Sequence record: PQ724392.1
DNA length: 64,000 nt
Reading direction: 5' to 3' (one strand)
DNA from: a phage
Position numbers and translations under genes: made by a program. The notes under the pieces are model-generated. The model searched no databases, was not told where the DNA came from, and worked only from the letters and a program-made list of their open reading frames with translations. The stretch's first letter is position 1. The number at the start of each line of letters is the position of its first letter. This document shows, in pieces, positions 21,549 through 29,649 of this stretch.

Positions 21549-22508
21549 TTATTTTGTGAAAGGACGAATTAAATGCTGGTTAGCTTTGAAACGTTTAACA
21601 TAGTCTTCGTGACCCAGGGTGTTGTACATATTAACCACTTCCTGGTAATGTTCCCAGGCATACTCGCGGAACCATCCAGAAGTAATGGAGGTGCAGACTT
21701 TTTCCAGCGCAATATGGAAGCTCACGGATGGAGAGATATTGAACTCATTGGGAACCTGCGAACGCTCCAGAGCGAGTACACATGCTTCTTCATAAACCCC
21801 TGCCAGTTTAATAATCTCAGGGAGTGCTTCAAATTTTTCACGCGAGGTCATAACTTCTGAATCATCCTTCATATAGAACTTATATGCAGGCTTATCAGCA
21901 AGCGCCACGGCCTCGTGGATGGAGTCATGGTCAAGGGTATAGATTGTATCATTAAAGAAAGTTTTCTTGCCCACGTCTAGTTTAGGGTGGCTATACGACA
22001 ATGTTTCTGCCTGGCGCTGCAGCATGATTTTCTGCAGTTCATCATTAAGAACAACACCCTTATTGCGAAGGTAATTAATATGACTCATGGTCTTCAGGAA
22101 GAATGGATTGTTCTTCAGGTAACGATGAGACAGTTTAATTGCCAGACAAATATCAGGAGTCGCCCAATAGAAACCTGTAAGACGGTCTTTCTTAATATGA
22201 TTTTCAGCGTATTTCAAGAGACGATAACTTGAGGTGAAATCTTCATCTTGAAGCTCACCAGTAATTTCTCGTACGTTAGTCAGGGCACGGACAATATAAG
22301 CTTCAAAATAGGTTTCTTTTCCATTGTACATACATTTAAAAGCTTGGACATCAGGGTTATCCACAGGAACATGAGCACCGAACATACGTGCTTTAAAGTG
22401 GTTCCAGGAGCCCTGGTCAGCGATAAAGTCCCAATCAGAGTTTTCAATTTTCTGACTTTCAATCAGACCAGCGTTATGTAATGCACGAGAACCAATAACT
22501 AACATCAT
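21549..22508 (-). CDS. hypothetical protein with possible nucleotidyltransferase-like N-terminus
   Basis: 319 aa; VIGSRAL...NSDWDFIA (GS then S-D-x-D). Confidence 0.55.
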   Translation of the reverse strand: MMLVIGSRALHNAGLIESQKIENSDWDFIADQGSWNHFKARMFGAHVPVDNPDVQAFKCMYNGKETYFEAYIVRALTNVREITGELQDEDFTSSYRLLKYAENHIKKDRLTGFYWATPDICLAIKLSHRYLKNNPFFLKTMSHINYLRNKGVVLNDELQKIMLQRQAETLSYSHPKLDVGKKTFFNDTIYTLDHDSIHEAVALADKPAYKFYMKDDSEVMTSREKFEALPEIIKLAGVYEEACVLALERSQVPNEFNISPSVSFHIALEKVCTSITSGWFREYAWEHYQEVVNMYNTLGHEDYVKRFKANQHLIRPFTK

Positions 22509-22521
22509 AATATTTTCCTCA

Positions 22522-22689
22522 TTAGTAAAGACGAGTTACTTCATATTTTCCAAGTGCCGATTTTTTCGCTTCAATTCGTGAGGCAGCAAGATTGGCGGCC
22601 TCTAGTGAAGAAAATTGAACCACTTGAGAAGTATTCTGTCTTACTCCACCTTGCGGGTGAGTGACAAAAACAATAAAAACATTATACAT
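22522..22689 (-). CDS. small hypothetical protein (55 aa)
   Basis: hand-translated; GAGGAAAA RBS. Confidence 0.35.
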   Translation of the reverse strand: MYNVFIVFVTHPQGGVRQNTSQVVQFSSLEAANLAASRIEAKKSALGKYEVTRLY

Positions 22690-22699
22690 AATATTTTCC

Positions 22700-22900
22700 T
22701 CAAATAATACCGTATGCGTAAATATCTCTTTTAATGCAGGAAACTACTTCTTCCAGAGAATCACAAACACGTTCTGTGACGCCTGCGTAATCACCACTGA
22801 TGGTTACTTTAATGCCATCAGAAACTTCCTGGAGATTAACCTCCAGTTGGTTGACTTTGGCTTCGTTCAGAACTTTGATTAATTCGTTTGCGATAGACAT
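22700..22900 (-). CDS. hypothetical protein
   Basis: 66-aa ORF. Confidence 0.45.
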   Translation of the reverse strand: MSIANELIKVLNEAKVNQLEVNLQEVSDGIKVTISGDYAGVTERVCDSLEEVVSCIKRDIYAYGII

Positions 22901-22964
22901 TTTTATTCTCCTGTTCTGATAACGTGATTGTCATCAGTTGATAGGAGTATAGTAACACAGTTTT

Positions 22965-23294
22965 TTAGACTTGTATACTGCTTCTACAATATTCTAAAAA
23001 TAATTTATCGTTGTCTACCTTATCCCAACGACGCCAAGATGGATTCCAGACCAGAGCGTTGTCACCGCAATCATTGAGCTTAAAGTGGTCGTAGTACATA
23101 GCTATATGTCTGGTTTCGTCACCAGAGAACCCCAGTATATGCTCACCGTGGGTATGATACATATGATGATGCATTGAGAGGTCGCATTTGTAAAACATCT
23201 CACGTTTACCACGAACGAACAAGAAGGCTTGCCCATTCATATAGAATTCTTTATCTGTTTTCAAAAGATATTTGAATACCGAATCTTTATGCAT
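22965..23294 (-). CDS. His-rich hypothetical protein (possible metal binding)
   Basis: ATG 23294 with AGGAGG RBS; HHHMYHTHGEH cluster. Confidence 0.5.
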   Translation of the reverse strand: MHKDSVFKYLLKTDKEFYMNGQAFLFVRGKREMFYKCDLSMHHHMYHTHGEHILGFSGDETRHIAMYYDHFKLNDCGDNALVWNPSWRRWDKVDNDKLFLEYCRSSIQV

Positions 23295-23324
23295 AATTCC
23301 TCCTACCACATCCTTGTGATTAAA

Positions 23325-23552
23325 TTATTTTCCTAACGAAATACGAGTAGGTTTTTTACCGAAATATTCTTCATAGGAACCATCTAAACGACCCGCTTTA
23401 GACCGACAATACGAATCATACTTTTTGTAATAAGTCAACTCGTTATTATAACGTGGATGTCTATCAGCCATAATAATACTTAATGGCCAACCTTTGGCAT
23501 AATCACGAAGACCATTTATTTTACGAATATATCTTTTCTTTAATTTTAGCAT
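23325..23552 (-). CDS. small basic hypothetical protein
   Basis: 75-aa ORF. Confidence 0.45.
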   Translation of the reverse strand: MLKLKKRYIRKINGLRDYAKGWPLSIIMADRHPRYNNELTYYKKYDSYCRSKAGRLDGSYEEYFGKKPTRISLGK

Positions 23553-23770
23553 GAGCTCGGGTGCCAGATTTTACCGTCAGGTTGAGCAACGAAGGTACGA
23601 CCAGCTTCTTCACCATAACAAGAGCTGTTCAGCCAGTCTTCAAGACGAACCTCACCATCATATTCGTCAAGCTCAATACCGAAATCTTGAGCGTTAGCCA
23701 TATCTTTTACTTTCTTATACAATGCAGCCAGTTCAAGTGCTGCTTTTTCTAATTCATTAATATCAGACAT
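23546..23770 (-). CDS. small acidic hypothetical protein
   Basis: 74-aa ORF. Confidence 0.45.
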   Translation of the reverse strand: MSDINELEKAALELAALYKKVKDMANAQDFGIELDEYDGEVRLEDWLNSSCYGEEAGRTFVAQPDGKIWHPSSC

Positions 23771-23779
23771 TTTTATTCC

Positions 23780-23992
23780 TTAGCATTCGTAAGAGGATGA
23801 TACCCAAGAGGTACCACTAATAGTAATACAACCGTTATAAAGCGTGATATGTCGTTCTAAGTCACGAACACCATCAATGTAGATATCAGCTTCTTCGCGT
23901 TCTTCTTTACAAATCTGGATAACGTTTTCAATAGCTGCCGCGGCAGTACGGATTGCACAATCTAATTCACGAGACATATAATTCCTTAACAT
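23780..23992 (-). CDS. small protein, WVSSSxxC-tail family member 1
   Basis: 70 aa ending WVSSSYEC. Confidence 0.5.
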   Translation of the reverse strand: MLRNYMSRELDCAIRTAAAAIENVIQICKEEREEADIYIDGVRDLERHITLYNGCITISGTSWVSSSYEC

Positions 23993-24267
23993 TCAGAAGA
24001 GGAGGACACCCAACCGCCATTTTCCAGGTCAGTTGTATAGTCATGAGTGTTAACAATAGCCCATTCAGGATGGCCATGTTCTTCCCAATGGGCAAGGTCA
24101 GCTTTCAAGGCACCAGGAGAATAATAGTCACCGCCCATACCGCGAGCAGGGTATATATTAAAATGAGTCTCATATTTGTTTGCAATTTCCTCGGCACGAC
24201 GAATAGCTTTATGGATATCATTTACTGCGTTAGCCAGTTCTTTATTTTTACGGTAATCATTCATCAT
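23986..24267 (-). CDS. small protein, WVSSSxxC-tail family member 2
   Basis: 93 aa ending WVSSSSEC. Confidence 0.5.
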   Translation of the reverse strand: MMNDYRKNKELANAVNDIHKAIRRAEEIANKYETHFNIYPARGMGGDYYSPGALKADLAHWEEHGHPEWAIVNTHDYTTDLENGGWVSSSSEC

Positions 24268-24276
24268 AGCGTTTCC

Positions 24277-24567
24277 TTAGCACATTGCCGAAGAGGAGAC
24301 CCAAGCACCAACTGTAACGACACCGTTTTCAACTTCGCCGCCGTTGTTTTCAATTTCATCTTTAAACCACTGGGAGCACTCATAACCGACAGGATAATAT
24401 GTACGGCCTGAACCATAATCACCGGTACCGAATTGGATACCATATTCATCTGCGATTTCTTCACAGTGTTTTTCAATTTCAGAGGTCTTATTTAGAAGAG
24501 AATAGATAGCTTTTTCTGCAGATTTCTCATCATAATACTTGGGGATAGCAATTTCAATTTTATTCAT
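24277..24567 (-). CDS. small protein, WVSSSxxC-tail family member 3
   Basis: 96 aa ending WVSSSAMC. Confidence 0.5.
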   Translation of the reverse strand: MNKIEIAIPKYYDEKSAEKAIYSLLNKTSEIEKHCEEIADEYGIQFGTGDYGSGRTYYPVGYECSQWFKDEIENNGGEVENGVVTVGAWVSSSAMC

Positions 24568-24917
24568 GATTTACATTCCTTAATAAAGGTTTCAAGGTCA
24601 TTACGTTTTGTTTTGTCTAGGAACTTATTATACTCAGCCATTGCTGAAGCATATCTCTTCCGACTAGGAGCATTCACGGCGTTTGTGTGACAAATATCAT
24701 ACACAACCGGGATAAAATAAGCCACAACAGCCGGAGCGATTATCATAAAGAAACCCATCTCAATGGGCATGACTCCCTCGATTGCAGCCATAACCGTGGT
24801 CATTACCAGACCAACCAAACCACCGAGCATACCGGTGACAATTCCCAATAATAAATTGCCGCCAATATCATATTCAGCCAATTGATAAACATGTGATGCA
24901 AGACTAGGCCGTTCCAT
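24564..24917 (-). CDS. membrane protein (2 TM) with FIKECKS tail
   Basis: ATG 24917 with AAGGAGG RBS. Confidence 0.5.
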   Translation of the reverse strand: MERPSLASHVYQLAEYDIGGNLLLGIVTGMLGGLVGLVMTTVMAAIEGVMPIEMGFFMIIAPAVVAYFIPVVYDICHTNAVNAPSRKRYASAMAEYNKFLDKTKRNDLETFIKECKS

Positions 24918-25299
24918 TACGAACCTCCTTAATAAATTCTTCGGCACATTTAATTTTGTGCTCTTCTTGTAGGGAAACACATTTTTGTTCCCACTCTTTA
25001 ACTCGCCCACGATATCCTTTATTCATATGATTTTGATGCCACACATTTATCAATATCATACTCAGGACCGTAATAAAAGGAGCTGCGATTATTAGCGCCC
25101 AGGCAACTCCAACACTGATGATATCCATATCCCCACAAAGCACCATCATTATAACCCCAACGATGCACATGGACAAAGCTCCAAATGGAGGCATAAGGTC
25201 TTTATCAATCTTGTCTGCGTATACAAATTTTTCTGGTTTACTTGGCAGATATAGCGTTCGCATTTTGAACCCCTTTAGCATATTCACGACATTCAGCAA
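24904..25299 (-). CDS. membrane protein (2 TM) with FIKEVR tail
   Basis: 131-aa ORF. Confidence 0.5.
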   Translation of the reverse strand: MLNVVNMLKGFKMRTLYLPSKPEKFVYADKIDKDLMPPFGALSMCIVGVIMMVLCGDMDIISVGVAWALIIAAPFITVLSMILINVWHQNHMNKGYRGRVKEWEQKCVSLQEEHKIKCAEEFIKEVRNGTA

Positions 25300-25810: not shown

Positions 25811-25834
25811 TTAGGGGGCTTTGCCCCCTTTATC

Positions 25835-26847: not shown

Positions 26848-26877
26848 ATTATGCCTTAAAGCAGGGGGCTTGTATAC
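26848..26877 (-). promoter_or_regulatory. early promoter with -35 (GTATACA) in hairpin loop (PeSL-like cassette)
   Basis: GGGGG..CCCCC hairpin, 17-18 nt, CATAAT, conserved leader. Confidence 0.5.
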
Positions 26878-26889
26878 CCCCTTTTTGAA

Positions 26890-29496: not shown

Positions 29497-29573
29497 TGGT
29501 CGGGGTGGTGGGATTCTAACCCACAACCTACGGTTTAGAAGACCGTTGCTCTATACAATTGAGCTACACCCCG
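29497..29573 (-). tRNA. tRNA-Arg (anticodon UCU), CCA encoded
   Basis: hand-folded cloverleaf: 7-bp acceptor, D-stem GCTC/GAGC, anticodon loop CTTCTAA, T-arm GTGGG-TTAGAAT-CCCAC. Confidence 0.8.
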
Positions 29574-29575
29574 GG

Positions 29576-29649
29576 TGGCCCCATCCGGACTTGAACCGGA
29601 AACCTGCCAGTTATGAGCCGGATGCTCTAACCAATTGAGCTACAGGGCC
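29576..29649 (-). tRNA. tRNA with CAU anticodon (Met or Ile-lysidine type)
   Basis: hand-folded cloverleaf: acceptor GGCCCTG/TGGGGCC, T-arm TCCGG-TTCAAGT-CCGGA; abuts tRNA-Arg. Confidence 0.75.

Follow-up and report, generated by a model that had tools for sequence, protein, structure and literature searches.

What could lead a phage to keep a row of adjacent small genes whose products differ along most of their length and all finish with a Trp, a pair of Ser, and a Cys as the last residue of the chain? This question is raised by a locus on the minus strand of the window analyzed here, a stretch of 64,000 nucleotides (nt) of phage DNA (sequence record PQ724392.1). Large lytic phages, including those of the T4 type, have hundreds of small early genes to which no function is assigned, and with this locus one cluster of them becomes a defined, testable unit. 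In the original prediction, three tandem open reading frames (ORFs) ending in WVSSSxxC were taken as a gene-family expansion with a shared interaction, sorting, or modification signal. We have found four such genes, belonging to a small family with a strict signature of Trp, Ser-Ser, and terminal Cys that is tied to a single conserved enzyme-like gene encoding the Pfam domains DUF7277 and DUF7275. From this adjacency we infer a physical or functional partnership, and we give a probability of about 40% to a two-component module in which the tail would be the site where the enzyme acts or docks.

A four-gene array with a common C-terminal end

The region belongs to a Gaprivervirus-type T4-like phage, with 90-98% nucleotide identity to ECML-359, vB_EcoM_RZ, SP18, and VR7. 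The array is located in the accessory stretch between e.2 and e.3/e.4, and its genes are annotated in public records as hypothetical proteins. The ORF list and the sequence confirmed the three ORFs first noticed, on the minus strand and with the tails described for them. Their tandem paralogy also stands, but their number does not, since an adjacent gene of 74 amino acids (aa) had been missed. The four genes are as follows (pI, isoelectric point):

24277-24567, minus strand: paralog 1, 96 aa, pI 4.4, ending in ...VGAWVSSSAMC (tail codons at 24280-24303)
23986-24267, minus strand: paralog 2, 93 aa, pI 5.4, ending in ...GGWVSSSSEC, with the terminal Cys as its sole Cys; the copy used for modeling
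23780-23977, minus strand: paralog 3, most likely 65 aa from Met6 (the program-made ORF of 70 aa extends to 23992), ending in ...TSWVSSSYEC
23546-23770, minus strand: paralog 4, 74 aa, pI 4.3, with two copies of the motif

All four copies have an ending of the form G-x-W-x-x-S-S-(x0-2)-C followed by the stop codon. Paralog 4 combines the terminal WHPSSC (23549-23566) with an internal W46-LNSS-C51 (23618-23635), and this double-motif subfamily is kept in other phages. The window has 1064 stop-to-stop ORFs with a length of 30 aa or more, of which only these four, all adjacent, end in W..SS.{0,2}C, whereas the mean expected by chance is 0.01 (200 shuffles).

The bodies had been described as divergent, and pairwise identities of 17-34% bear this out; they are not, however, unrelated. 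A family hidden Markov model (HMM) built from 67 sequences matches all four paralogs (E=1.3e-27 to 2e-4) and no other ORF of the window, and both the HMM and the PHROG matches span the full proteins. The family corresponds to phrog_899 and phrog_4882, of unknown function, which the window copies match at E=1.9e-9 to 3.2e-36. Paralogs 1, 2, and 4 match phrog_899 (E=3.7e-23, 1e-19, and 1.9e-9, respectively), with HMM values of 1.3e-27 for paralog 1 and 6.8e-7 for paralog 4. Paralog 3, the most divergent body of the four, matches phrog_4882 over residues 6-70 (E=3.2e-36) and the HMM at E=2e-4. Judged by these profiles, the four bodies are divergent yet homologous over their whole length.

Translation starts, gene junctions, and selection

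The lengths of 93 and 96 aa given in the original prediction held, whereas that of 70 aa most likely has to be shortened to 65. The ATG of Met6 in paralog 3 (23975-23977) has TAAGGAA located 5 nt upstream, as in the other array genes; the sequence before it reads GAA TGT TAA GGAATTAT ATG, and TAAGGAATTAT precedes that ATG. The longer start lacks a Shine-Dalgarno sequence. Since, in addition, the homologs P0001 and P0002 and the SP18 annotation have 65 aa, translation most likely begins at Met6.

The three array junctions (23770-23780, 23977-23992, and 24267-24277) read TG(C/T) TAA GGAA N5-6 ATG, so that the Shine-Dalgarno sequence (TAAGGAA) of the next gene includes the stop codon that follows the terminal Cys. 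This arrangement suggests that the array grew through tandem duplications in which the junction was part of the repeated unit, and that its genes may be translationally coupled.

Every array gene has a Shine-Dalgarno sequence (AAGGAA upstream of paralog 1). The ratio of nonsynonymous to synonymous substitution rates (dN/dS) against orthologs was 0.06-0.34 for three array genes (0.06-0.22, 0.07-0.34, and 0.06-0.14 for paralogs 1, 2, and 4, respectively), the 65/70-aa ORF having yielded no ortholog comparison. The tail codons vary between copies, with TCC, TCT, TCG, TCA, or AGC for Ser and TGC or TGT for Cys, and thus conservation acts on the protein and not on a DNA repeat. The low dN/dS values and these codon differences confirm that the array consists of real, selected protein-coding genes. 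A DNA-level repeat or a Shine-Dalgarno constraint as the cause of tail conservation was ruled out, because the codons differ and the last copy (23546), which has no GGAA after its stop codon, still ends in Cys.

Distribution of the Cys-ended family

An exhaustive profile search over 1.84 billion cluster representatives returned 54 family representatives, all of 72-138 aa and with a common architecture. In the 67-sequence alignment, W86, S89, and C93 (numbered as in the 93-aa copy) never vary, and Y48 and S90 are kept in at least 90% of the sequences. AExIADExGxxF, YGMGGTYYP, and GxWxSSSxxC are recurring motifs, and the alignment has no conserved stretch of 7-10 columns. The end recurs in homologs, and so does its Cys: in 141 of 143 distinct family ORFs, from about 90 fetched loci, the stop codon directly follows it. 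Two types of tail can be distinguished, W-x-[S/A/P]-S-S-x-x-C and W-x-x-S-S-C, and extra copies of the motif occur inside some members.

The proteins are uniformly acidic (median pI 4.4). The expansion is larger than had been claimed, with four copies in the window, five in SP18, three in Mosigvirus (RB69-like), and one to six elsewhere, the number varying between close relatives. The paralog subfamilies are each conserved across genera. A fifth paralog, ending in ...GFWFNSSMSC, is found in SP18 (L002 6490-6717) and several other phages and is absent from the window.

The array copies share up to 100% identity with deposited hypothetical proteins, and known members include RB69 ORF136c-139c, JS98 gp126-129, and SP18 gp137-141. 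The genes have therefore already been deposited and clustered, but the catalogs place its members in two separate groups and make no mention of the invariant terminal Cys or of the link to the DUF7277-DUF7275 gene. No significant match to Pfam, NCBIfam, or PADLOC and no match to a toxin-antitoxin (TA) family was obtained for the small proteins, and the literature returned no paper on the family, on DUF7277/DUF7275, or on their pairing. Some records (PQ341120.1, PP693301.1, MW250787.1, and cluster P0099) give the small genes or the enzyme spurious automatic names, i.e., VirB3, GH13, transposase, sulfurtransferase, major capsid protein, and prohead scaffold, which are not functional evidence.

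Linkage to the DUF7277-DUF7275 gene

The first lead to a partner came from a metagenomic contig, on which the gene of a distant member of the family (P0072) has that of a DUF7277+DUF7275 protein directly after it. The window contains a gene of this kind, on the same strand as the array and about 1 kb downstream of it:

21549-22508, minus strand: DUF7277-DUF7275 protein, candidate partner, 319 aa, with DUF7277 N-terminal and DUF7275 C-terminal
22522-23552, minus strand: four small intervening ORFs of 75, 114, 66, and 55 aa, between the array and the DUF7277-DUF7275 gene

The intervening ORFs belong to distinct PHROGs (7065, 9796, 14244, and 20278) specific to this phage group and do not belong to the small family, none of them matching the family HMM. 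Many other phages have the array directly against the enzyme gene. A promoter and terminator scan found no convincing terminator on the minus strand in the interval that separates the array from the DUF7277-DUF7275 gene; its count of promoter-like sites, 30 against 22 expected, is uninformative.

Co-occurrence was assessed on about 100 loci. We fetched 80 viral loci through the enzyme, with identities as low as 40% and with 350-kb contigs among them, and scanned them with the family HMM; further loci were fetched through single members of the small family. One to six family ORFs, all on the strand of the enzyme, are carried by 72 of 81 enzyme-fetched loci. Upstream positions outnumber downstream ones by 180 to 5, and the gap to the enzyme gene has a median of 314 bp and reaches overlap at its minimum. 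When the enzyme was dereplicated at 75% identity, 30 of 40 lineages were positive by the HMM alone, and with the tail pattern added, 34 of 37 lineages with the long form of the enzyme were positive, divergent members having been recovered by inspecting the negatives. Clustering of the neighbors in the 40 lineages showed that the small family is the only conserved neighbor of the enzyme, the next cluster being present in 7 of 40. In the opposite direction, the enzyme gene was found directly downstream in all four small-protein-fetched loci with enough downstream sequence.

The same arrangement is found in the divergent T4-type phages Acinetobacter DLP3 and Shewanella Thanatos-1. Outside the T4-type phages it is present in Phapecoctavirus ESCO13 (three copies), Pseudomonas Otagovirus COT4, Ralstonia Ackermannviridae RSP15 (three copies), and Stenotrophomonas Menderavirus Moby (two copies, downstream). 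The pairing thus spans Straboviridae, Stephanstirmvirinae, Ackermannviridae, Otagovirus, and Menderavirus, and constitutes a near-obligate, oriented, same-strand adjacency to one enzyme-like gene across unrelated phage groups.

The whole genome of T4 contains neither the small family nor the DUF7277-DUF7275 gene, and because of this absence the module has probably escaped study. T4 nrdC.11 (L118 6436-7446), annotated as a nucleotidyltransferase, is unrelated and does not match the DUF7277-DUF7275 profile. Short-form enzymes, which lack residues ~30-95 and occur in actinophages and Actinobacteria, are not accompanied by family members. Bacterial genomes yielded only 18 enzyme loci, which are either phage-like contigs of metagenome-assembled genomes or short-form actinobacterial copies.

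RNA ligase or tRNA genes stand beside the module in several unrelated phages (L006 4612-5763, L093 4895-5917, L091 2064-2723, and L094 4959-5106). An Rnl1-type RNA ligase gene is located directly upstream in L006 and an RNA ligase gene directly downstream in RSP15 (L093), and tRNA genes lie directly downstream in Thanatos-1. The enzyme may thus have an RNA-related role, although these genes are not conserved neighbors in the clustering.

The DUF7277-DUF7275 protein

The 319-aa protein is a full-length member of its family (PF23942, E=4.5e-26; PF23940, E=9.9e-76; phrog_2141), and its gene has a dN/dS of 0.03-0.12. There are more than 2000 homologs, and the pairing with the small proteins is the first functional handle on these two Pfam domains. 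Residues G6-S7, D25-x-D27, K125, H128, H194-D195, H198, E240-E241, E248-R249, and T273-S274 are invariant even when the actinophage homologs are included, and E69 is invariant among the long forms. The pattern G[ST]x8-26DxD occurs in 78 of 91 distinct enzyme ORFs. The Pol-beta signature hG[GS]...[DE]h[DE]h and a third downstream carboxylate are also present, a pattern match that on its own is weak evidence. Two GenBank records of Acinetobacter homologs bear the depositor annotation "putative nucleotidyltransferase". We read the protein as a putative Pol-beta-type nucleotidyltransferase with a His/Asp-rich C-terminal domain.

Profile comparisons gave no significant match to a known nucleotidyltransferase family. 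Eighteen enzyme members gave no match to NTP_transf-type Pfam families at E up to 10, and neither the enzyme sequence nor two profiles gave a significant match in the PDB, where the KEN domain of RNase L appeared below threshold (E=0.22). A match to CARF_HEPN of PADLOC (E=0.012) is also sub-threshold. The Rx4-6H motif of HEPN domains is not conserved, the corresponding segment being SHRYxKNxPxF, in which the position of the His six residues after R129 is a Phe in the window protein. We have not built on a HEPN or HD-domain identity, and simply note the invariant His and Asp residues.

Predicted fold of the small proteins

The 93-aa paralog 2 was modeled with AlphaFold2 from the 67-sequence alignment, reaching a predicted local distance difference test (pLDDT) score of 92.1 and a predicted TM-score (pTM) of 0.80; a shallow alignment of 19 sequences had given an unusable pLDDT of 51. 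The model is a compact alpha/beta domain with the topology helix-strand-strand-helix-helix-strand (H9-32, E35-38, E46-49, H51-63, H71-74, and E84-88). The GGWVS of the tail forms the third strand of the sheet, with the Trp in a core beta-strand, and the last residues are less confident. The common anatomy of the family begins with an N-terminal helix ending in A-E-x-I-A-D-x-x-G-x-x-F. Two short strands around a Y-G-M-G-G-T-Y-Y-P loop follow, and then a hypervariable acidic insert. The last strand, G-x-W-x, contains the invariant Trp and leads to the chain end Ser-Ser-(x-x)-Cys-COOH.

All four copies share one fold, and the array encodes a single family of acidic, cytoplasmic alpha/beta proteins of small size (65-96 aa). 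The idea of a common tail attached to unrelated bodies is thus not supported, and the predicted strand formed by Gly-x-Trp-x-Ser argues against a floppy tag. The sorting (or secretion) signal contemplated in the original prediction is rejected as well: inspection of the sequences by eye showed neither a signal peptide nor a membrane segment (no predictor was run), and the proteins are acidic.

The predicted fold matches nothing in the PDB. A sequence-profile search of the PDB with the small proteins returned only coiled-coil or designed-helix noise on the N-terminal helix, and a search of BFVD only uncharacterized family members. The N-terminal fold of the Phd/YefM/RelB antitoxins counts among the nearest known systems; there was no significant structural superposition with the Phd/YefM fold.

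A possible two-component module and its alternatives

Of the first interpretation, a shared interaction or modification signal is still the best idea, with the DUF7277-DUF7275 gene as the candidate partner. According to the two-component reading, the small family would be a variable-copy partner of the protein encoded just downstream. The enzyme would recognize the constant, Trp-anchored end of the tail and might act chemically on its nucleophilic Ser-Ser/Cys, e.g., by nucleotidyl or phosphoryl transfer, while each paralog would owe a downstream role or target of its own to its divergent body and acidic insert. The broad claim, a functional two-gene module centered on the tail, comes near to an even bet without exceeding it. 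Chemical modification of the tail is favored because the invariant residues that follow the Trp are nucleophiles, and a role of the small proteins as adaptors or regulators is nearly as plausible. The specific chemistry, nucleotidyl or phosphoryl transfer to the tail, is a guess and an unlikely one. We would also call improbable the boldest version, a phage-specific protein-modification system in which the enzyme covalently modifies the Ser-Ser/Cys end of dedicated small carriers, and the modified proteins, or a small molecule built on the terminal Cys or released from it, act on the host. If true, it would represent a new enzyme-plus-scaffold chemistry in at least five unrelated groups of large phages, with mostly Gram-negative hosts.

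Several observations weigh against the two-component module. About 1 kb with four unrelated small ORFs lies between array and enzyme gene in the window, no member of the small family could be detected in one enzyme lineage (L050/51/61/86), and the adjacency could be inherited gene order. The enzyme has no significant nucleotidyltransferase, HEPN, or HD match among Pfam, NCBIfam, and PDB profiles, and its putative assignment as a nucleotidyltransferase is taken from a short motif only. In the model, the Trp and its neighbors may be conserved simply as a core strand. The spacing from Ser-Ser to Cys varies (0 or 2 residues), the internal copies of the motif are non-terminal, and in Ralstonia phage RSP15 (L093 3066-3868) two of the three members have 2-3 residues beyond the Cys (…RWRSSTAICNGY and …KWNASAGMCGYL). 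Consequently, a strict need for a free Cys carboxylate is not universal.

Many early proteins of T4-type phages and many anti-defense proteins bind host proteins, and the small proteins could likewise be independent effectors of host takeover or anti-defense, each binding a host protein. In that case the end would be a structural cap or a metal/thiol site, and the synteny only a conserved gene order in an accessory region. This is somewhat unlikely. The proteins are small, acidic, and multi-copy, in numbers that vary between close relatives; they are encoded in the variable e.2-e.3 region that T4 lacks, the Trp sits in a core strand of the model, and the conservation of each subfamily across genera suggests distinct roles. 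Gene order, however, does not readily account for an adjacency and orientation that persist at 40% enzyme identity in phages whose gene order is unrelated to that of T4, nor for the lack of any other conserved enzyme neighbor and the joint absence of both genes from T4. A structural role would leave unexplained the invariant nucleophiles (Ser, Ser, and Cys) and the Cys-then-stop of 141 of 143 ORFs. The partnership is kept if the small proteins are antitoxin-like or regulatory inhibitors that restrain or time a potentially toxic nucleotidyltransferase, their Ser-Ser-Cys end (thiol plus carboxylate) being inserted into a metal-containing active site. Nucleotidyltransferase toxins with protein partners are established (MntA-HepT, AbiE, and MenT), and an upstream position with translational coupling (the stop codon within TAAGGAA) is typical of antitoxin-toxin pairs. 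Nevertheless, up to six diverged and individually conserved inhibitors per enzyme are hard to rationalize, and no PADLOC or TA-family match was obtained. This explanation is distinctly unlikely.

Still less probable, and in fact very improbable, is that the small proteins are precursors like those of ribosomally synthesized and post-translationally modified peptides (RiPPs). Here a C-terminal Ser, activated by the enzyme through nucleotidylylation or phosphorylation, would be dehydrated and cross-linked to the terminal Cys in a lanthionine or aminovinyl-cysteine (AviCys) ring. Ends of the type S-x-x-C-COOH form AviCys, and the Ser-Ser-x-x-Cys-COOH end, with Cys last in 141 of 143, resembles them. 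As in lanthipeptide/AviCys clusters, small paralogous genes lie in tandem directly upstream of one enzyme gene. The conserved neighbors, however, include no dehydratase, cyclase, radical-SAM enzyme, or HFCD decarboxylase, and the neighbors in the window have no LanB/C/M/KC/L-type or HFCD Pfam domain. Conservation is reversed, with a constant "core" and a variable "leader", the Ser-to-Cys spacing is not fixed, and the predicted structure of the "precursors" is a compact folded domain with the tail Trp in a sheet (pLDDT 92). A ubiquitin-like tag was rejected because there is no Gly-Gly ending. Ubiquitin-like proteins, sulfur carriers, and related tags (ThiS, MoaD, and Pup) differ in their Gly-Gly or GGQ/E end, which here is S-S-x-x-C, and the small proteins have neither a beta-grasp topology nor a fold match.

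Returning to the two-component module, its proposed logic is like that of MntA-HepT (a type VII toxin-antitoxin system) and GlnD-PII, in which a Pol-beta-type nucleotidyltransferase modifies a small partner on a hydroxyl side chain and a nucleotidyltransferase gene stands beside that of the modified protein. The systems also differ: no relationship of sequence or fold was detected, the small proteins are alpha/beta and not HEPN or PII, the module is from phages, with up to six partners per enzyme, and the modification is only proposed here. The module resembles nucleotidyltransferase-plus-partner pairs and RiPP clusters in layout only. If the enzyme modifies the small proteins or is steered by them, the pair would represent a new phage mechanism of host manipulation or counter-defense, perhaps with a new chemistry of protein modification. 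Should this not be so, the family still provides a clean example of an uncharacterized fold with a conserved reactive end.

Other features of the region

Directly upstream of the array are two genes for predicted membrane proteins similar to e.3/e.4 (24564-25010 and 24904-25299, minus strand). They match phrog_2330 and phrog_2604, with a weak cross-match between them (E=0.004), and look like another tandem pair of paralogs. Their program-made ORFs overlap by ~100 nt, and the real start of the downstream ORF is probably later. Farther upstream, the intergenic segments at 25813-25829 and 26863-26882 contain near-identical GC-rich palindromic hairpins (AGGGGGC...GCCCCCT) that flank an e.6-like gene and might act as bidirectional terminators or in RNA stability. 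The window contains no tRNA genes other than tRNA-Arg(tct) and tRNA-Met(cat), located at 29497-29649 (minus strand), and SP18 has three at the equivalent place.

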